From NCBI GenBank assembly GCA_017468465.1, contig JAFUIN010000001.1:14425-78424 (forward strand): DNA of 64,000 bases, given 5' to 3'. Made by a program: the position numbers and the translations under genes. The stretch comes from Clostridia bacterium. GTDB lineage: Bacteria; Bacillota; Clostridia; UMGS1840. Below, one piece after another: positions 5,828 through 18,028 of the stretch (positions are counted from its first letter, which is position 1; each line of letters opens with the position of its first letter). Below the pieces are notes generated by a model that did not search any database, was not told where the DNA came from, and was given only the letters and a program-made list of their open reading frames with translations.

Positions 5828-6760
5828 ATGAAGTATTCAGACAGTTTTGGAAAGAAAAGCTCCCAAATACTTTTGGGGACTGCATATTTTGGAGACACCA
5901 TTTCCGAGGCAGAGGCATTTGCCATTATGGATAAATATTACGAGATGGGTGGCCGCCATATTGACGTTGCCCGTCTTTATGCAGATGGAGAAGCAGAAAA
6001 AGTAGTCGGAAAGTGGCTGAATGACAGAAAGCCTGCCGACATCCTTGTTTCCACCAAAGGCGGATATTATGATATGGATGGAGGAGAGGCACCCCGAATC
6101 AACGAAGCGGATATCCGTTTTGATTTGGAATGCAGTTTGAAGGCGTTAAAACAGGAGCAAATCGAATTTTACTGGCTTCACCGTGATGATGAAGCAAGAC
6201 CGGAAAATGAAATCATTGATATGATGAATCGGCTGGTCAAGGAAGGGAAAATTAAACAATTCGGTGCATCAAACTGGCGTTCACAAAGAATCGAAATGGC
6301 AAATCAATATGCAAAAGAAAATGGACTTGCCGGATTTTCAGCAAGTCAGATACGCTTTAATCCTGCCTATTGTCTGGGTGAAAGAGGCGGACTGGTAGGA
6401 ATGGATGCGGATGAGTTTGCATTCTATAAAAACAATCCTATGCCGGTGGTGGCATATTCTTCCCAGGCAAAAGGATTTTTCTCAAAGATGGCAGAACAGG
6501 GCGAAAGTGCGCTGTCCGAGAAAGCAAAAAAGCGGTACCTGTGTGAAGAAAATTTGAGACGGTTAGAGTTGATTAAACAGCTTTCGGCAGAACAGCGCTG
6601 CAGTGTTGCAGCTGTGGTATGCGGCATTCTTTGTTCTATCTCGGCTGTGGAGGTATTTCCGATTATCGGCGGAAGAACCCTTTCCCAGATTGAAGATTCT
6701 ATGAGAGGCGCGGATGTTTCAATTCCGGCAAATGTGATAACCGACGTGTTGGGTTATTAA
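5828..6760 (+). CDS. Aldo/keto reductase family oxidoreductase
   Basis: GTAYFG...GGRHIDVARLYADGEAE..VG, EFYWLHRDD and GKIKQFGASNW are typical AKR motifs. RBS AAGGAG lies upstream. Confidence 0.85.
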   Translation: MKYSDSFGKKSSQILLGTAYFGDTISEAEAFAIMDKYYEMGGRHIDVARLYADGEAEKVVGKWLNDRKPADILVSTKGGYYDMDGGEAPRINEADIRFDLECSLKALKQEQIEFYWLHRDDEARPENEIIDMMNRLVKEGKIKQFGASNWRSQRIEMANQYAKENGLAGFSASQIRFNPAYCLGERGGLVGMDADEFAFYKNNPMPVVAYSSQAKGFFSKMAEQGESALSEKAKKRYLCEENLRRLELIKQLSAEQRCSVAAVVCGILCSISAVEVFPIIGGRTLSQIEDSMRGADVSIPANVITDVLGY

Positions 6761-6779
6761 ACGCAAAAGAACAAGTATA

Positions 6780-7985
6780 ATGGAGAATGGGAAAATGAAT
6801 CTCTTGGATCAGTGTAAAAAATATGGAAAATTGATACTAAAATGGGTGCTTTTCGGCATCTTAATTGGCTTTCTTGGCGGACTATTGGGCACTGCTTTTC
6901 ATATCAGTGTGGATTTTGTTACCGAACAGCGGGAACATAACCATTGGATGATTTATCTGTTGCCTATTGGCGGGCTTCTTATTGCAGCGATGTATGGTCG
7001 CTTTCGTAACTTTGGCAATATTGACACAAAGCGTGTCTTTCAGGCGGTGAAAGAGAAAAAAGATGTTCCGCTTGTGATGATTCCACTGATTTTTTTTGGT
7101 ACGGTCATTACGCATGCATTGGGTGGTTCTGCCGGCAGAGAAGGGGCTGCACTCCAGCTTGGCGGCAGTATGGGCTACAATGTAGGACAAGCATTGAAGC
7201 AGGAGGATGACAGCAAAAAGCTGATGGTGGCAGCGGGGATGAGCAGTGTGTTTTCTGCTTTGTTTGGAACACCGCTTACTGCAACAGTTTTTTCCCTTGA
7301 GGCAACCAGAGTAGGAATGTTCAATTTTCGTGGCTTGCTTCCGGGGCTGATTTCTTCTGTGACAGCGTTTTTAGTATCCCGTTTTTGTGGGGTGGAACCG
7401 GTTCGTTTTCTGATGCCTTTCGTATCGGGGAATCTGATGTTTTCCATATTAAAGGTAATTGTGCTTGGGATTTTATGTGCAGGAGTTTCTATGGTGTTTG
7501 CATGGTCTCTTCACAAGAGTGAACATCTTGCGAAAAAGACTGCTCCGAATGCTTATGTTCGTGCTTTTGCCGGCGGGGTTCTGCTTGTGGGACTTACTTA
7601 TCTTGCCAAAACACACGACTATAACGGTGCGGGGATGGGTGTAATTGCAAATGCAATCGCCGGAGAAGCAAATTTTGAGGCGTTTCTTATGAAGATTCTG
7701 TTTACTGCAGTTACCGTTGCGGCTGGATTTAAGGGTGGCGAGATTGTGCCTACCTTTTTCATTGGAGCAACCTTTGGTTGCATGGCAAGCGGTCTGTTGG
7801 GGTTAGACCCCGGGTTTGGAGCCTGCCTTGGATTTATTGCTTTATTTTCCGGCATGACAAAATGTCCGTTTGCTTCCGTATTGTTAGGCTTGGAAGTGTT
7901 TGGGGTGAAGGGAATTCTCTTTTTTGCCATCATTGTTCCTGTCACTTACCTTTTTTCCGGACGTCTGGGACTATATAATGAATAA
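6780..7985 (+). CDS. ClC family anion channel/antiporter (short form, possibly CLC-F-like)
   Basis: GSAGREGAALQLG (gating-Glu motif without the Pro of GREGP), GTPLTA and GGEIVPTFFIGA; about 10-12 TM segments over 401 aa. Confidence 0.85.
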   Translation: MENGKMNLLDQCKKYGKLILKWVLFGILIGFLGGLLGTAFHISVDFVTEQREHNHWMIYLLPIGGLLIAAMYGRFRNFGNIDTKRVFQAVKEKKDVPLVMIPLIFFGTVITHALGGSAGREGAALQLGGSMGYNVGQALKQEDDSKKLMVAAGMSSVFSALFGTPLTATVFSLEATRVGMFNFRGLLPGLISSVTAFLVSRFCGVEPVRFLMPFVSGNLMFSILKVIVLGILCAGVSMVFAWSLHKSEHLAKKTAPNAYVRAFAGGVLLVGLTYLAKTHDYNGAGMGVIANAIAGEANFEAFLMKILFTAVTVAAGFKGGEIVPTFFIGATFGCMASGLLGLDPGFGACLGFIALFSGMTKCPFASVLLGLEVFGVKGILFFAIIVPVTYLFSGRLGLYNE

Positions 7986-10975: not shown

Positions 10976-11100
10976 GGTAATGTGTTTTTTCGCATTCTAA
11001 AATTTGCTGAAATTAAAAAAAACCATTCCAACTATTCGGAATAACTTGAAATTTTCTAACCGATATGCTATAATAAATCAAGCAAGAAGAAGGCAGGCTG

Positions 11101-11634
11101 ATGAAATTTACATTTGAAAATACATACAATCAAAAAGCATTATCTGTTATGGCAAAGTGTATTAGAAAGACTGTCAGAAAAGCAAAAAGCAACCAAAGCC
11201 ATATTTTTGGTTGGATTGTTGCCGTGTTAGGGATTCTTCTGTCACTTTCTTCCGGTGAGGAAAGGTTTATCATTGATGGAAGAAAAATCATCACCTGGCT
11301 TGTGGTTCTTGTGCTTGTTGCTGCACTGTTTTTGGAAGACAAAATCAATGGATATTTTGCAAAAAAACGGCTGCTTCCCGGTACGGAAAAAGCTGTGGTA
11401 ACCTTCGATTGTGAAAATTCGGACAGCTTTCTTTCAGAAACAGCTGTCGGCAAAACGGAATTTTCGTATGATAAGATAGGGCTGGTGGCAGAAACAGACG
11501 CATACTTTGTGTTTATATTCAGCAGCAGTCATGCACAAATTTATGATAAAAACAATCTTTCCGGCAGCACTTGTGAGGAATTCAGGCAATTTATCACCGA
11601 ACGAACAAACAAGAGCATTATCGCAGTCATATAA
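11101..11634 (+). CDS. Hypothetical membrane protein (YcxB-like architecture)
   Basis: 177 aa with two central TM helices followed by a small soluble domain. The family assignment comes from architecture only. Confidence 0.55.
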   Translation: MKFTFENTYNQKALSVMAKCIRKTVRKAKSNQSHIFGWIVAVLGILLSLSSGEERFIIDGRKIITWLVVLVLVAALFLEDKINGYFAKKRLLPGTEKAVVTFDCENSDSFLSETAVGKTEFSYDKIGLVAETDAYFVFIFSSSHAQIYDKNNLSGSTCEEFRQFITERTNKSIIAVI

Positions 11635-11691
11635 AGTGTTTTCCCAAAAAGCGATTGACATTAAATTTATCACAAAAAGGAGAGCTCCGCT

Positions 11692-12795
11692 ATGTTATTT
11701 GAAAAAGTGAAGAAAAATTTCGGATTTGGATTTATGCGGCTTCCCATGGATGGCGAGCAAGTGGATTACACTCAGGTAAATGAGATGGTAGACACTTTTT
11801 TAGAAGAAGGCTTTAACTATTTCGATACGGCACATGGATATTTGGACGGGAAGAGCGAAATCGCCATTCGGGAATGTCTGGTAAAGCGTTACCCGAGGGA
11901 TAGCTTTGTTTTGGCAGATAAGCTTTCTCCCTGGTATTACAATGCGGAGGAAGAAATCCGTCCGCTATTTCAAAAACAGCTGGAGGCTTGCGGGGTAGAT
12001 TTTTTTGATGTTTATTTGTTTCATTGTATGAATCAGGAGTTGTATCAGAAAAATATCCGTTGCAATTCCTTTGAAATTGTGAAGCAGTTAAAAGAAGAAG
12101 GAAAAATCGGACACATTGCCATGTCGTTTCACGATACAGCGGATGTGCTCGACAAAATTCTCACAGAGCAGCCTATGATAGAATATGTGCAGCTTCAGTT
12201 TAATTATCTGGACTATGATGACCCGGGCGTACAAAGCAGAGCTTGTTATGACGTGTGTATGAAGCACGGAAAAAAAGTGCTTGTTATGGAGCCTGTTAAG
12301 GGTGGTAATCTGGTGAATCTTCCGAAAGAAGCGAAAGAGCTGCTTCGGGCAAACAGCAAAGACAGCGAGGCGGCTTTTGCAATACGTTTTGCAGCAAGCT
12401 TTCCCAACATTGAAATGGTGCTGTCTGGGATGGGGAATATGGATATGCTTCGGGATAATGTTTCTGCTATGAAGGAGTTTGTTCCCTTGAGCGAAGAAGA
12501 ATTTGCACTTTCTGAGAAGCTTCGTTCACAAATTCGGGCTGTGCGGCAAATTTCCTGCACTGCTTGCCGTTATTGTGTAGATAATTGTCCCCAAAAAATT
12601 CAGATTCCCGATGTATTCTCTGTTTATAACAAACATTTGGCAGCAGAATCCGCCTGGAAAGAAACCAAAGTGATTTTACAAGAGCAGCACGCCAATGTGA
12701 AAGACTGCATTCAGTGTGGCGCTTGTGAGAAATACTGTCCGCAAAACATTCACATTAAAGAGACAATGAAGCTTTTGGGCGAAGCAATGGATTAA
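11692..12795 (+). CDS. Aldo/keto reductase with C-terminal 4Fe-4S ferredoxin-type domain
   Basis: The AKR core (FNYFDTAHGYLDGKSE) is followed by two Cys clusters, CTACRYCVDNCP and CIQCGACEKYCP. Confidence 0.85.
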   Translation: MLFEKVKKNFGFGFMRLPMDGEQVDYTQVNEMVDTFLEEGFNYFDTAHGYLDGKSEIAIRECLVKRYPRDSFVLADKLSPWYYNAEEEIRPLFQKQLEACGVDFFDVYLFHCMNQELYQKNIRCNSFEIVKQLKEEGKIGHIAMSFHDTADVLDKILTEQPMIEYVQLQFNYLDYDDPGVQSRACYDVCMKHGKKVLVMEPVKGGNLVNLPKEAKELLRANSKDSEAAFAIRFAASFPNIEMVLSGMGNMDMLRDNVSAMKEFVPLSEEEFALSEKLRSQIRAVRQISCTACRYCVDNCPQKIQIPDVFSVYNKHLAAESAWKETKVILQEQHANVKDCIQCGACEKYCPQNIHIKETMKLLGEAMD

Positions 12796-12898
12796 AAAAA
12801 TGAGACAGAAAGCAACTGTTACTTCTTGTGATATCCGACTCTAAAAAAGCTTATCTGTGGCAGATGGAACAATATAAAAGATTGAAGGAGAAAAAACA

Positions 12899-13921
12899 AT
12901 GAAAAAATTTCTGTTACCGGAAAGTGGTCAGTTTTACAAGGCGAATCTGCATTGTCACACCAATGTGTCAGATGGCAGACTTTCCCCTGCTGAAATGAAG
13001 GAAGAATACAAAAAAAGAGGCTATAGCGTGATTGCTTATACCGATCATAATGTGCTGGTTCCTCATCCGGAGCTGACCGATGATGGTTTTGTTGCACTTC
13101 ACGGCTTGGAATATGATATCACGGAAGAAGCAAAGCAAGATGAGCCGTTTCACCGGTTAAAAACCTGCCATATTTGTATGATCACTACCGATCCGGATTA
13201 TGTGGTGCAGCCCTGTTTTTGGTATTCCTGGCTCTATCAGCATTTGCCGGACCCATCTGTGGTTCAGCATGATGAGTCTATTCCGCCGTACGAATTTCAA
13301 TATACTCCCGAGTATATCAACGATATGATTAAAACCGCCCGTGAAAAAGGCTATTTTGTAACCTATAATCATCCGGCATGGTCTCAGGAAGGCTATGAAA
13401 TTTACAGCAAGTACGAAGGGATGAACGCCATGGAAATCTGCAACTACGGTTGTATTACCGAGGGATATCACGATTATAATCCCCATGTGTACGATGAGTT
13501 GCTCCGCCAGGGTAAAAAGCTGTACTGTATTGCAACTGATGATAACCACAACGGTCGCCCCCTGGATAGTCCACATTGCGATTCCTTTGGCGGTTTTACG
13601 ATGATTAAGGCAGAAAAGCTGGAATACAGAGCCATCGCTGATGCACTGAAAAACGGTAACTTCTATGCTTCACAGGGGCCTGAAATTCACAGCTTATATG
13701 TGGAAGACAACAAATTACATATTAAAACCTCTGATGCGGCAAAAATTGTCTTCACCACCGGTGTCCGCCACGGAAAGTGTCAGTATCCGTCGGAAGGGGA
13801 TACCATAAACGAAGCAGAGTTTGAGCTTCGCCCTGATGACATTTATGTTCGTGTGACCGTGTTTGACAAGAGCGGCAAGCCTGCTGATACCAACGCATAT
13901 TTTGTGGAAGATATTTTATAA
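12899..13921 (+). CDS. PHP-family metal-dependent phosphoesterase/hydrolase, paralog 1
   Basis: N-terminal ANLHCHTNVSDG (HxH) and AYTDHN, later TYNHP and ATDDNHN. RBS GAAGGAG lies upstream. 340 aa. Confidence 0.8.
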   Translation: MKKFLLPESGQFYKANLHCHTNVSDGRLSPAEMKEEYKKRGYSVIAYTDHNVLVPHPELTDDGFVALHGLEYDITEEAKQDEPFHRLKTCHICMITTDPDYVVQPCFWYSWLYQHLPDPSVVQHDESIPPYEFQYTPEYINDMIKTAREKGYFVTYNHPAWSQEGYEIYSKYEGMNAMEICNYGCITEGYHDYNPHVYDELLRQGKKLYCIATDDNHNGRPLDSPHCDSFGGFTMIKAEKLEYRAIADALKNGNFYASQGPEIHSLYVEDNKLHIKTSDAAKIVFTTGVRHGKCQYPSEGDTINEAEFELRPDDIYVRVTVFDKSGKPADTNAYFVEDIL

Positions 13922-13934
13922 AGGAGACCTCGCT

Positions 13935-14972
13935 ATGAGAACTTACTTATTGCCCGAAAAAGGACAGTTTTATAAAGCAAATTTACATTGTCATACCACC
14001 GTTTCCGACGGAAATCTGACGCCGGATGAAATCAAGGAGGCATACAAACAGCGCGGATATTCTGTTGTGGCATTTACCGACCATAATATTTTAGTGCCGC
14101 ATCCGTATCTGCAAAGCGACGATTTTGTGGCGTTGTATGGTATGGAATACTATTTTGCAGAGGTGCTTCCCGGTCAGTCATGGGAACAATCCAGAACCTC
14201 TCATTTGTGTCTGATTTCATTGGATCCTGAAAATGTGATTCAGCCTTGCTTTTATCAACCGAATTGGTTTTATGACAGACTTTTAGAACGTAACGACCCC
14301 CGCTATCAGGTGACATTGGATCCTAATGCGCCTGCTTACGAAAGAGTGTTCACACCCGACGGTGTGAATGAGGTGATTCAAACCGCCCGTGAAAAAGGTT
14401 TTTTTGTTACTTACAATCATCCCAAATGGTCCAAGGAGGGTTATGAAACCTACAGCCAATACAAGGGAATGCACGCCATTGAAATTTGCAACTACGCCTC
14501 CTATGTGAAGGGCTTCCACGAATATAACACCAAGGTGTATGAAGAAAAACTGCATAACGGTGAAAAAATCTTTGGTATTTCTGCCGACGATAACCATAAC
14601 GGTTCTCCCTTTGACAGCCCGTATAACGATTCCTTTGGTGCTTTTACCATGATCAAAGCAGAAAATTTGGATTACCGTTCCATTACCGATGCTTTGGTGA
14701 AAGGTCATTTTTACGCATCTATGGGGCCGGAAATTTACAGCATGTATCTGGAAGGCAACAAGTTGCACGTGAAAACCTCCGATGCAGCCATCATCAACTT
14801 TACCTCCGGCATCCGTCATTGCTATAATGAGTATTGTCCGGAAGGCGGCAAGCTCAACGAAGTTATTTTTGATGTATGGCCACAGGATATTTTCTTCAGA
14901 GTAACCGTGTGCGACAAAGAGGGCAGACGTGCAACCAGTAATGCCTACTTTGTGGAAGATTATGTGAAATAA
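13935..14972 (+). CDS. PHP-family metal-dependent phosphoesterase/hydrolase, paralog 2
   Basis: ATG 13935 is preceded by AAGGAGA, and the N-terminus MRTYLLPEKGQFYKANLHCHT aligns with paralogs 1 and 3. The track start at 13863 overlaps paralog 1 and is rejected. Confidence 0.8.
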   Translation: MRTYLLPEKGQFYKANLHCHTTVSDGNLTPDEIKEAYKQRGYSVVAFTDHNILVPHPYLQSDDFVALYGMEYYFAEVLPGQSWEQSRTSHLCLISLDPENVIQPCFYQPNWFYDRLLERNDPRYQVTLDPNAPAYERVFTPDGVNEVIQTAREKGFFVTYNHPKWSKEGYETYSQYKGMHAIEICNYASYVKGFHEYNTKVYEEKLHNGEKIFGISADDNHNGSPFDSPYNDSFGAFTMIKAENLDYRSITDALVKGHFYASMGPEIYSMYLEGNKLHVKTSDAAIINFTSGIRHCYNEYCPEGGKLNEVIFDVWPQDIFFRVTVCDKEGRRATSNAYFVEDYVK

Positions 14973-14988
14973 ACGGGAGGATTTTGAT

Positions 14989-16041
14989 ATGAGAAAATAT
15001 TTATTGCCCGAAAACGGACAGTTTTATAAAGCAAACTTACATAGCCATTCTACCATGTCTGACGGAAAGTTGTCTCCCGAAGAGATGAAGGCGGAATATC
15101 AGAAGCGCGGCTATAGCGTGATTGCTTATACCGACCATAACGTAATGGTTCCGCATCCGGAATTAACCGATGAAAACTTCGTTGCTCTCACCGGAACCGA
15201 ATACGATTTTGATAACGAAACCGAAGAAAATCCCTATCACGTGATTCCGGTTTGTCACATCTGCCTGATTGCATTGGACCCCGATAACGTGGTGCAGCCC
15301 TGTTTCAGCCTTCCCAATCGGTATTACGACAGAATCGTGTCATTCAACGACCCCCGATATACTGTTACTTACGATAAAACCCAGCCAAATTATTCCCGTG
15401 ATTATACGCCGGAATGTATCAACAACATTATGAAAACCGCCCGTGAAAAAGGCTTTTTCGTAACCTATAACCATCCCACCTGGTCGCTGGAACGGTTTGA
15501 AATTTACGGCAAGTACGAAGGGATGAATGCCATGGAAATCTGCAACTATGGTTGCGTTACCGAGGGCTATGACGAATATAATGCCGCTCAGTATGACGAA
15601 ATGCTTTCTGCCGGCAAAAAAATCTTTTGTATTGCAACCGATGATAATCACAACCACTATTCCTTTGACAGCCCTCGTTGCGATTCCTTTGGCGGCTTTA
15701 CTATGATTAAAGCGAAAAAGCTGGAATACCGTTCCATTACCGATGCACTGGTAAAAGGTCATTTCTATGCCTCTATGGGCCCCGAAATTTACAGCTTATA
15801 TCTGGAAGGCAACAAGCTTCACATCAAAACCTCCGATGCAAAGCGTATTGTGTTTGCCACCGGTATCCGCCATTGCCATACTGCATATCCCACCAACGGC
15901 GATCACATCAACGAAGCGGAATTTGAGCTTCGTCCTGATGATATTTATGTTCGTGTGACCGTGTTTGGGATGGACGGAAAACCTGCCGATACCAACGCTT
16001 ATTTCTTAGAAGACATCTTAGGCGAATCAGATAAAATGTAA
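14989..16041 (+). CDS. PHP-family metal-dependent phosphoesterase/hydrolase, paralog 3
   Basis: MRKYLLPENGQFYKANLHSHSTMSDG; RBS GGGAGGA upstream. The protein is a mosaic of paralog-1-like and paralog-2-like segments. Confidence 0.8.
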   Translation: MRKYLLPENGQFYKANLHSHSTMSDGKLSPEEMKAEYQKRGYSVIAYTDHNVMVPHPELTDENFVALTGTEYDFDNETEENPYHVIPVCHICLIALDPDNVVQPCFSLPNRYYDRIVSFNDPRYTVTYDKTQPNYSRDYTPECINNIMKTAREKGFFVTYNHPTWSLERFEIYGKYEGMNAMEICNYGCVTEGYDEYNAAQYDEMLSAGKKIFCIATDDNHNHYSFDSPRCDSFGGFTMIKAKKLEYRSITDALVKGHFYASMGPEIYSLYLEGNKLHIKTSDAKRIVFATGIRHCHTAYPTNGDHINEAEFELRPDDIYVRVTVFGMDGKPADTNAYFLEDILGESDKM

Positions 16042-16068
16042 GAATTTTCATAAAATATAAAAAAACAC

Positions 16069-16097
16069 TTGACATTTTGATAAAAGGATTGTATAAT
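16069..16097 (+). promoter_or_regulatory. Sigma-A promoter of the rplU operon
   Basis: TTGACA (16069-16074), 17 nt, TATAAT (16092-16097). Confidence 0.7.
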
Positions 16098-16099
16098 AC

Positions 16100-16210
16100 T
16101 GTGGTAACCGCTCTGGAGTGGCATAAGAATCTTACTTTGGTAAGGTCACCATGATCCGGGCGTGTCCTAAATAACCATCCGAAAACGGATGCAAAAAATT
16201 TAATTGGGAG
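16100..16210 (+). promoter_or_regulatory. Structured 5' leader of rplU-prp-rpmA (candidate L21-leader type ribosomal protein leader)
   Basis: A leader of about 115 nt lies between the promoter and rplU and contains several hairpins (for example CATCCG-AAAA-CGGATG at 16176-16191). Its position matches the Firmicute L21 leader. The family was not verified. Confidence 0.45.
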
Positions 16211-16218
16211 GTGCTTTT

Positions 16219-16530
16219 ATGTACGCAGTTTTGAAAACCGGCGGAAAGCAGTACAAAGTAGCAGAAGGAGATGTAATTTACATCGAAAAATTAGGACTTG
16301 GTGAAAACGAAACCTACACTTTTACCGAAGTGTTGGCAATCGGTTCTGATGATGGCATCAAAGTTGGTGCTCCTTATGTTGACGGTGCAACTGTAACCGC
16401 AAAAGCAATCAAAGAAGGAAGAAGCAAAAAGATCATTGTTTACAAGTATAAACCGAAAAAAGGTTATCACAAAAAACAGGGTCACAGACAGGCTTATACC
16501 AAAGTACAGATTGAAAAAATCAACGGTTAA
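16219..16530 (+). CDS. rplU: 50S ribosomal protein L21
   Basis: [25 protein letters not shown] is canonical. ATG 16219 follows GGGAGGTG. The track start at 16204 is over-extended. Confidence 0.95.
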
Positions 16531-16536
16531 TTTTTT

Positions 16537-16869
16537 ATGATAAACATTGAAATTAACAGGAATTACATCGGTAATATTAACCGATTTTCGGTAGATGGGC
16601 ATTCCGGCTATGAGGAAAGCGGCAGAGATATTGTTTGTGCCAGCGTTTCCACTGCCACACAATCCGTTGTGTTGGGGATGTCAGAAATCTTAGGAATCCG
16701 CTTGAATATTATCATTGATGACGGTCATCTTGAATGTGTAATTCCTGAAATTTCCGACCAGCTTGTATTGGAAAAGGTAAACATTTTGTTGGAAACAATG
16801 GTGTTAACCTTGTACCAGATGGCGTCGGAATATCCTGATTATGTAAAAATGTTAGAAGTGGAGGAATAA
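16537..16869 (+). CDS. prp: Ribosomal-processing cysteine protease Prp (YsxB family)
   Basis: Located between rplU and rpmA. The GHSGY...DIVCASVS motif carries the catalytic His and Cys. Confidence 0.9.
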
Positions 16870-16873
16870 AATT

Positions 16874-17149
16874 ATGTTCAAAATTAATTTCCAATTATTT
16901 GCTCATAAAAAAGGTGTAGGTAGCACCAAAAACGGCAGAGACAGTGAATCCAAAAGACTGGGTGCGAAAAGAGCAGACGGTCAGTTTGTTTTAGCTGGCA
17001 ACATTCTGGTTAGACAGAGAGGCACCAAAATCAATCCCGGTGAAAATGTTGGAAAAGGCTCTGACGATACTTTATACGCTTTAATCGACGGTAAAGTAAG
17101 ATTTGAAACCAAAAGAGATAAAAAACAGGTTAGCGTATACGCTATCTAA
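16874..17149 (+). CDS. rpmA: 50S ribosomal protein L27 (with Prp-cleaved N-terminal extension)
   Basis: [30 protein letters not shown]: a 9-aa propeptide followed by the canonical AHKK start. Confidence 0.95.
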
Positions 17150-17168
17150 TCTCAAACATCGCAAAGAG

Positions 17169-17202
17169 AAAGCTGTATCATTTCGGTGATACAGCTTTTT
17201 TT
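17169..17202 (+). terminator. Intrinsic terminator after rpmA
   Basis: AAAGCTGTATCA-TTTCGG-TGATACAGCTTT hairpin plus T-run. Confidence 0.85.
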
Positions 17203-17220
17203 GTGCATTTTTTGGTATCA

Positions 17221-17256
17221 AAAAGGTCTGTAGCATTTCTCGCACAGACCTTTTTT
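17221..17256. terminator. Bidirectional terminator (3' end of lexA)
   Basis: AAAA-GGTCTGT...ACAGACC-TTTTTT; an A-run and a T-run flank the hairpin. Confidence 0.7.
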
Positions 17257-17268
17257 AGCTCATTTTTA

Positions 17269-17904
17269 TTAGAATTTTCGGATTAAGCCAATCACTTTTC
17301 CCAAAATGTTTAGCTTGGTGACAATAATCGGCTCCATGGTGTCATTTTCCGGCTGCAGACGGAAATATCCATCTTCCTTGTAAAAGGTTTTGACGGTAAC
17401 GCTGTCATCCAGAAGTGCAACCACAATTTCACCGTTTTCTGCTGCAGGCTGACGGGCAACAATTAAGAAGTCGTCGGGAAGAATCCCTTTTTGAATCATA
17501 CTGGTACCCTGAACCTTTAGCATAAAGACTTGCTTATTGTTGGTCAGCTCAACGGGAATGGTCATAGTATTGTCAAAATTTTCGGATGCCCAGATCGGTT
17601 CGCCGGCTGCAACATTCCCCAAAATAGGAACCTCCACCACATTGGTATTGGACATATCCGGGTTGGAAAGAGGAGCTTTGGTTTCCTGCCCCTTCACCAC
17701 CGAGATGGCTCTGTTTTTGGAAGAGCTTTTGTTCAAGAAGCCTTTTTCTTCTAAATTTTTCAGGTGGGTGAACACGGTTGCGGTAGAACGCAACCCAACC
17801 CCCAAGCAAATATCACGAACTGTAGGCGGAAATCCGTTTTTTTCCTGAAAATCATTGATAAAATCTAAAATCAGTTTTTGTTTTTTGGTTAATTCCATAT
17901 CCAT
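17269..17904 (-). CDS. lexA: LexA repressor (S24 autopeptidase)
   Basis: N-terminal wHTH (LTKKQKLILDFI..NGFPPTVRDI), cleavage site VAAGEP, and catalytic GTSM...K in the C-terminal domain. Confidence 0.95.
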   Translation of the reverse strand: MDMELTKKQKLILDFINDFQEKNGFPPTVRDICLGVGLRSTATVFTHLKNLEEKGFLNKSSSKNRAISVVKGQETKAPLSNPDMSNTNVVEVPILGNVAAGEPIWASENFDNTMTIPVELTNNKQVFMLKVQGTSMIQKGILPDDFLIVARQPAAENGEIVVALLDDSVTVKTFYKEDGYFRLQPENDTMEPIIVTKLNILGKVIGLIRKF

Positions 17905-17999
17905 AACAGAAAGCTCCTTATTAGGTGTTTTGTCGAAAAAGACCTGAAAAACAAGGTTTTTTTCAGGTTTTTTCGGTATTTTTTCGCTTTGTTATTCAT

Positions 18000-18028
18000 A
18001 GTATAACATATAAAATTTGATTTGTCAA
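18000..18028 (-). promoter_or_regulatory. lexA promoter
   Basis: On the minus strand: TTGACA (18028-18023), 17 nt, TATACT (18005-18000). The -35 element overlaps SOS box 1. Confidence 0.6.

Follow-up and report, generated by a model that had tools for sequence, protein, structure and literature searches.

Three tandem PHP-family paralogs in a Clostridia genome: a long-established array with probable traces of old recombination

In characterized enzymes of the PHP superfamily (PF02811), nine His, Asp and Glu residues build a trinuclear metal site. The named CehA/McbA enzymes come from xenobiotic-degrading Proteobacteria. Here, we analyze three consecutive PHP-family genes, P1 (12899..13921), P2 (13935..14972) and P3 (14989..16041), located head-to-tail on the + strand of a 64,000-nucleotide (nt) stretch of contig JAFUIN010000001.1 from a Clostridia bacterium (GCA_017468465.1; hereafter, the window). 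We consider it about 70% probable that these are long-established, differentiated paralogs, in which the patchy similarity among the copies reflects old recombination and uneven divergence, followed by independent evolution. The locus resembles tandem families shaped by unequal crossover and gene conversion in that head-to-tail paralogs yield discordant trees for different parts of the gene, a hybrid gene occurs where one copy is lost, and one, two or three copies are found at one locus. It differs from tandem families under concerted evolution, of which there is none here at present: the paralogs have diverged by 30-36% in nucleotide sequence and evolve independently.

P1 (340 amino acids, aa), P2 (345 aa) and P3 (350 aa) share with the PHP superfamily the HxH, D, H, E, H, H, D..H motif series and a predicted barrel, and pass the Pfam gathering threshold for PF02811 (31.2, 32.4 and 31.4 bits, respectively, against 26.4). 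The initial annotation had guessed a CehA/McbA-like assignment, and this guess was correct: all three proteins exceed the cut-off of 80 bits of the curated NCBIfam model NF038032 (CehA/McbA domain; 93.5, 91.1 and 84.2 bits for P1, P2 and P3, residues 12-293), which is a domain-level model, not an equivalog, with the match ending at model position 230-252 of 315. Unlike the named CehA/McbA enzymes, P1, P2 and P3 are encoded in a housekeeping locus of gut Clostridia, with no indication of carbamate hydrolysis, and the genomic context around the three genes gave no sign of aromatic or xenobiotic catabolism. The equivalog models of characterized PHP enzymes do not fit: NF041577 (30-33 bits against a cut-off of 400), NF047791 (25-28 against 375) and NF004981 (23-25 against 117) match residues 14-56 only. 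Overall, the models for histidinol phosphatase, 3',5'-nucleoside bisphosphate phosphatase, RNase AM/RNM and PolX give 23-33 bits over the first ~40 residues, compared with cut-offs of 117-426. The nine metal-ligand positions (H18, H20, D25, H50, E71, H90, H162, D219 and H221 in P3 numbering) are identical across the trio; among 61 homologs, no variation is seen at H18, H20, D25, H50, E71, H162, D218/D219 or H221, and H90 is kept in 90% or more. Because all nine ligand positions are kept, P1, P2 and P3 are all presumed to be active metal-dependent hydrolases.

The architecture described in the initial annotation, a PHP barrel followed by a C-terminal beta-rich domain in proteins of 340-350 aa, was recovered in an AlphaFold2 model of P3 built from the homolog alignment (predicted local distance difference test, pLDDT, 96; predicted template-modeling score, pTM, 0.93), in which a distorted (beta/alpha)7 barrel extends to about residue 260 and is followed by an all-beta domain. 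A Foldseek search of the Protein Data Bank (PDB) with this model retrieved PHP proteins only, with 3e38 (BVU_3505 of Bacteroides vulgatus) at the top (E 4e-11, probability 1.0). Further matches, likewise with probability 1.0, were 2anu, 7ug9, 9etk, 3o0f, 2yb1 and Pol III alpha PHP domains, and the proteins represented after BVU_3505 were TM0559, RNase AM, BAD_1165, Cv1693 and the PHP domains of Pol III/PolX. BVU_3505 (343 aa) likewise combines a PHP domain with a C-terminal beta domain; it differs in being only 14-15% identical (TM-score 0.45, root-mean-square deviation 10.6 A) and is a structural-genomics entry of unknown function. Sequence and profile searches of the PDB yielded nothing beyond distant PHP matches, most of them confined to the HxH region at the N-terminus and none closer than 3e38, and the C-terminal domain alone produced weak fibronectin-III-like Foldseek matches.

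The three copies appear to be old. Orthologs of P1, P2 and P3 are present in a 1:1:1 relation in six other GTDB species genomes, with a partial array at locus L088, and the three paralog clades are cleanly monophyletic. Amino-acid identity among orthologs is 84-97%, with a ratio of nonsynonymous to synonymous substitution rates (dN/dS) of 0.046-0.060 and dS of 0.8-1.2, and at 67 alignment columns every paralog clade is fixed for one state, with differences among the clades. P1 orthologs are 87-90% identical in six genomes, and P2, the paralog diverging most from the other two, is nevertheless the best conserved among its own orthologs (91-96% identity). Comparison of copy number in related genomes, which had been proposed as a check in the initial annotation, showed that triplication is not usual: among 79 loci in species-representative genomes, 71 contain one copy, six the same three-gene array and two a pair of genes, and a scan of metagenome contigs for more arrays returned two distant loci only. 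In the clade of the window, the array is always located between an aldo/keto reductase (AKR) gene and rplU. The array forms at this locus comprise one P3-like gene (L086, 6001-7035); a P2-like gene, L087_b, with a P3-like gene, L087_c (L087, 845-2932); a hybrid with a P1-like N-terminal part (N-part) and a P2-like C-terminal part (C-part), followed by a P3-like gene (L004, 4960-7035, and L005, 5661-7734); and three genes, in the window and six others. We denote the first gene and the P3-like gene of the two-gene arrays in L004 and L005 as G1b and G2b, respectively. The P3 type is kept in every array variant found.

Within the window, amino-acid identity is 58% between P1 and P2, 69% between P1 and P3 and about 59% between P2 and P3 (64%, 70% and 66%, respectively, at the nucleotide level). 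All the motifs that had been noted by inspection were present, namely HCHT in P1 and P2, HSHS in P3, and TDHN, YNHP and DDNHN, as were the blocks common to P1 and P3 (RGYSVIAYTDHNV.VPHPELTD and INEAEFELRPDDIYVRVTVF...GKPADTNAYF) and to P2 and P3 (NDPRY.VT and YRSITDALVKGHFYASMGPEIYS.YLEGNKLH). A pair of nucleotide segments reported as near-identical (13809-13866 and 15909-15966) matches at only 15 of 58 positions as given; a shift of 2 nt (13809-13864 against 15911-15966) restores the similarity, with 52 of 56 positions (93%) identical. The claim that the similarity is mosaic and not tree-like was upheld by permutation tests and segment trees. Sites at which P3 agrees only with P1 or only with P2 are clustered along the trio alignment (3SEQ-like permutation test with P3 as the child, p = 0.007-0.010), including when the same test is restricted to synonymous sites in codons for the same residue in all three (p = 0.02; runs test, p = 0.004), and for states fixed in at least six of the seven species p < 5e-5. 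Among states shared by at least six of the seven species, agreement of P1 with P3 predominates at alignment nt 121-330, 451-750 and 871-1065, and agreement of P2 with P3 at nt 331-450 and 751-870.

Segment trees, computed by neighbor-joining (NJ) from Jukes-Cantor (JC) distances over short segments, show well-supported topologies that conflict between parts of the gene, the pattern that marks recombination. Over nt 91-750, P1 groups with G1b (bootstrap 100), P2 with L087_b (100) and the P3 type forms its own group (95), with P2 and P3 as sisters (84); over nt 91-450, P1 falls outside P2+P3 with 89% support. From nt 871 to the end, P2, L087_b and G1b group together (98), with L087_b and G1b closest to each other (93), whereas P1 joins the P3 type (74%) and P1+P3+G2b exclude L086 and L087_c (77%). 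With orthologs, outgroups, L086 and L087 included, the P3-type genes constitute one lineage in both parts and P1 shifts position. Because P1 lies outside P2+P3 in nt 91-750 and inside the P3 type in nt 871-end, P1, not P3, is the likelier recombinant. Thus, the proposal that P3 is a recombinant was not supported, nor was the suggestion that P2 and P3 share the NDPRY loop through conversion, the two being sisters in the catalytic part (84-89%).

The segment in question, the C-part of P1 (13745..13918, + strand; alignment nt 871-1050), covers the second half of the beta-sandwich and is phylogenetically of the P3 type; its counterpart in P3 is at 15847..16023 (+ strand; identity of 0.77-0.83 in sliding windows). 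The proportion of nonsynonymous differences (pN) between P1 and P3 is 0.34 in nt 91-450, the same as for P2-P3 and P1-P2, and 0.17 in the C-part, compared with 0.31-0.32 for the other pairs, so that the ratio of P1-P3 to P1-P2 pN, 0.94 over nt 91-450, is only 0.55 over nt 871-1050. A more specific affinity of the P1 C-part to G2b (85-86%) was set aside because the proportion of synonymous differences (pS) is equal among the three; it is probably artefactual, caused by the more rapid amino-acid change of the P3 C-part. Another block of P3 (15727..15846, + strand; alignment nt 751-870, covering YRSITDALVKGHFYASMGPEIYSLYLEGNKLH) is closest to P2 14673-14792, with an identity of 0.89 between P2 and P3 against 0.77 between P1 and P3. 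Here, P3 and P2 have M, Y, G and AAGCTTCAC codons in common, and P1 and the P3-like genes of the two-gene arrays have Q, H and D. This block is possibly a short P2-to-P3 conversion tract; bootstrap support is weak, and trees of nt 751-870 do not resolve.

The hybrid gene of the two-gene arrays is sharply divided. G1b groups with P1 over nt 1-750 (bootstrap 100%) and with P2 over nt 871-1050 (96-98%); of the biallelic consensus sites, the 16 that unite P1 with G1b are all located up to nt 496, and the 12 that unite G1b with P2 are all located from nt 544 onward. Third-position identity in nt 931-1050 is 0.61 between G1b and P2 against 0.34 between G1b and either P1 or P3. The switch point, at ~nt 750-870, corresponds to residues 250-290, where the beta-domain starts in the model. 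A hybrid of a P1 N-part and a P2 C-part in an array that is one gene short is the expected product of an unequal crossover between P1 and P2. Assembly artefacts are an unlikely source of the hybrids because these come from independent metagenome-assembled genomes (MAGs), share 89-90% identity and differ by 25-30% from every P1 and P2. The array variants at the same locus point to old unequal crossovers.

Taken together, old recombination between tandem copies would have occurred at or just inside the junction of the PHP and beta domains, with the C-part of P1 derived from a P3-type gene; in related genomes, unequal crossover would have joined the N-part of P1 to the C-part of P2 with the loss of one gene. 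Lineage-specific uneven divergence, of P2 mostly in the termini and of P1 mostly in the variable loop, would have contributed the rest of the pattern. The paralogs diverge most in the beta-domain and in the loop spanning residues ~75-140 (pN 0.34); P1 is 4-5 codons shorter in the variable loop. These events would be older than the radiation of at least seven species, and since then the three copies would have evolved independently under strong purifying selection, with at most a ~26-nt micro-tract exchanged in this genome.

Several points weigh against this reconstruction. The nesting of the P1 C-part in the P3 type has only moderate support (74-77%), which comes from about 180 nt in NJ/JC trees, and the faster amino-acid change in the P3 C-part could distort this placement. 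Polarisation with 71 outgroups yields mostly private derived columns (32 in P2, 16 in P1 and 18 in P3), with 7, 4 and 5 shared-derived ones; most informative columns are thus private to one lineage, and therefore, much of the impression of shared blocks stems from retained ancestral sequence. With synonymous sites near saturation, the events cannot be dated well, and dating by dS was abandoned; we infer the direction of copy-number change (three to two or two to three) by parsimony. All comparison genomes are MAGs, the metal ligands were assigned by motif order and not from inspection of the model, and the closest solved structure, 3e38, is itself without a known function and aligns with TM-scores of ~0.45.

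The alternative that survives best, which we nonetheless regard as unlikely, is that the window genes did not recombine at all and that heterotachy, with P2 evolving fast in the N-terminal, core and C-terminal blocks and P1 in the variable loop, left ancestral sequence in the shared blocks. This would agree with the outgroup polarisation, in which most informative columns are derived in a single lineage, with the near saturation of pS in nearly all paralog comparisons and with the lack of clustering of the only 10 synonymous informative sites that are fixed across species, few as these are for a test. However, uneven rates do not readily account for the position of P1 outside P2+P3 (84-89%) in one part and inside the P3 type (74-77%) in the other, for the fall of the P1-P3/P1-P2 pN ratio from 0.94 to 0.55, or for the clustering that persists in the trio at synonymous sites only. 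Moreover, the hybrids demonstrate recombination in this family independently, through both the separated site classes and the third positions.

An improbable alternative reverses the direction of copy-number change: the array would have grown from two genes to three when an unequal crossover joined the N-part of a P3-type gene to the C-part of the first gene, giving P2, with the C-part of P1 being overwritten from P3 later. The sister relation of P2 and P3 in the N-part together with their common NDPRY loop, the grouping of the P2 C-part with that of the first gene of the two-gene arrays, and the existence of two-gene (L087) and one-gene (L086) arrays at the same locus are all compatible with such growth. 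However, N-part pN is 0.34 for P2-P3 against 0.14 for P3 compared with its P3-like counterparts in the two-gene arrays, so that a strong burst of P2 evolution would be needed; the G1b C-part is nested in the P2 type beside L087_b, as expected of a derived hybrid; and the scenario requires one event more than the deletion model.

The initial annotation had favored ongoing gene conversion among the three copies, with P3 as a recent recombinant of P1-like and P2-like sequences that generates diversity. In favor of this view is the significant clustering of site patterns in the trio, together with several further observations. The longest exact match between P1 and P3 (26 nt; 13019..13044, + strand, versus 15109-15134) includes an AGC codon for Ser that is private to P1 and P3 of this genome, with TCN in all orthologs, P1 and P3 of the window differ at ~11 fewer positions than the row and column means predict (roughly 2 standard deviations, sd), and P3 of the window has three extra P2-like residues (S, H and L) in 15727-15846. 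The 26-nt stretch, a possible lineage-specific micro-conversion, is the only candidate for a recent exchange event in this genome. Conversely, the mosaic is common to all seven species, and the mean identity of paralogs is the same within and between genomes in every 90-nt window, with P1 and P3 differing at 304-330 nt in all genome combinations. Exact runs within genomes (longest 26 nt in the window, 33 nt over all genomes) do not exceed those between genomes (mean 22, maximum 40), no long identical tracts between paralogs were found in the window or the ortholog genomes (maximum 33 nt), and no block has a pS below 0.42, the most similar ones having 0.42-0.57. Paralogs are not closer to each other within a genome than expected, diagonal residuals being within about 2 sd and clade means equal. 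Conversion in the lineage of the window was also sought through autapomorphies that match a paralog and was rejected, these making up 33-36% in P3 of the window and 18-36% in other genomes, which is background-like except for the 26-nt tract; many of the paralog-matching private sites of P3 are retained ancestral states. Ongoing exchange is thus largely refuted and, as an account of the locus, very improbable.

Having set these alternatives against old recombination followed by independent evolution, we consider the locus a fairly ordinary tandem duplication with old recombination scars that reveals no new mechanism. A bolder reading, which we offer tentatively and consider less probable than not, is that recombination at the junction recurrently re-paired the PHP barrel with the beta-sandwich and that the array forms were swapped as cassettes, flanked by AKR and rplU, between related gut Clostridia; if true, the locus would act as a natural, small-scale means of shuffling domains in an enzyme family whose substrate is uncharacterized. 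In a comparison of L005 (3400-8639) with L003 (3740-10944), the flanks are ~80-95% identical upstream (93% aa identity for AKR) and 83-100% downstream, and the PHP array between them is only ~55-85% identical and differs in gene number; narrower estimates for the same pair are ~87-97% for the flanks and ~60-80% for the array. The array type of these two loci is discordant with the flanks, as if a cassette had been swapped between lineages. The hybrid genes indicate the position at which this protein can accommodate an exchange of domains.

The subfamily to which these proteins belong is large, with 3390 proteins in the database at E <= 1e-10. Most come from Clostridia of animal guts, and all are named only 'PHP domain-containing protein', with no characterized member and no close solved structure. 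By analogy to characterized PHP enzymes, a phosphoester would be the likeliest class of substrate. Each paralog probably has its own substrate, and we can reasonably infer that the substrate range is diversifying across the copies; a clade that keeps three differentiated copies offers a natural contrast set for substrate finding. No family of the PADLOC defense models matched P1, P2 or P3 at E <= 0.01. Neighboring genes were tried as a clue to function and rejected: the surroundings of the 71 single-copy homologs are not conserved, and one look-up gave an M20 peptidase neighbor only. A shorter subfamily of 314-319 aa (L051, L061, L075, L076 and L078; match 6001-6942) lacks the whole variable loop (columns ~105-137), and three Acutalibacteraceae MAGs (JAZRNB01, JAZSNB01 and JAZSJT01) encode both this short form and, on a different contig, a full-length copy.

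The three genes were delimited by open reading frames (ORFs) and Pfam/NCBIfam profile scores, and each is preceded by its own ribosome-binding site (Shine-Dalgarno). For P2, an AGGAG 8 nt upstream identifies the ATG at 13935 as the start, rather than the TTG at 13863, where the longest ORF begins, and P3, the last gene of the array, has GGAGG upstream of its start. With intergenic gaps of 13 and 16 nt, a ribosome-binding site for each gene and no terminator-like site found inside the P1-P2-P3 array, the arrangement is operon-like, and P1, P2 and P3 are probably co-transcribed. Downstream of the P3 stop codon, a sigma-70 promoter with perfect consensus (TTGACA-17-TATAAT; 16069..16097, + strand) is taken to serve rplU-prp-rpmA and to bound the PHP unit.

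The AKR gene (11692..12795, + strand; PF00248, 3.9e-41) encodes a C-terminal 4Fe-4S dicluster domain (Fer4 families), ends 103 nt upstream of the array and is its constant directly upstream neighbor in this clade (synteny across L001-L008, L086 and L087). Elsewhere, this AKR-4Fe-4S gene is not adjacent to the 71 single-copy homologs. Farther upstream, a 177-aa ORF at 11101-11634 has no Pfam match and is predicted to include hydrophobic stretches; at the equivalent place of six related loci, between spoIVB and AKR, there is an ORF of ~900 aa that, by eye, resembles a P-type ATPase. An Rfam scan of 11000-18000 yielded no family at threshold, including ribosomal-protein leaders, so that no riboswitch or leader was linked to the genes. 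A leader of ~120 nt separates the promoter from rplU (region 16069-16219) and contains, immediately ahead of this gene, a hairpin at 16176-16191 (CATCCGAAAACGGATG). The spacer between P3 and rplU is 177 nt long in the window, and in some of the genomes with three genes it is enlarged by 1.1-1.4 kb (L003, 9131-10240; L002, 6502-7872).

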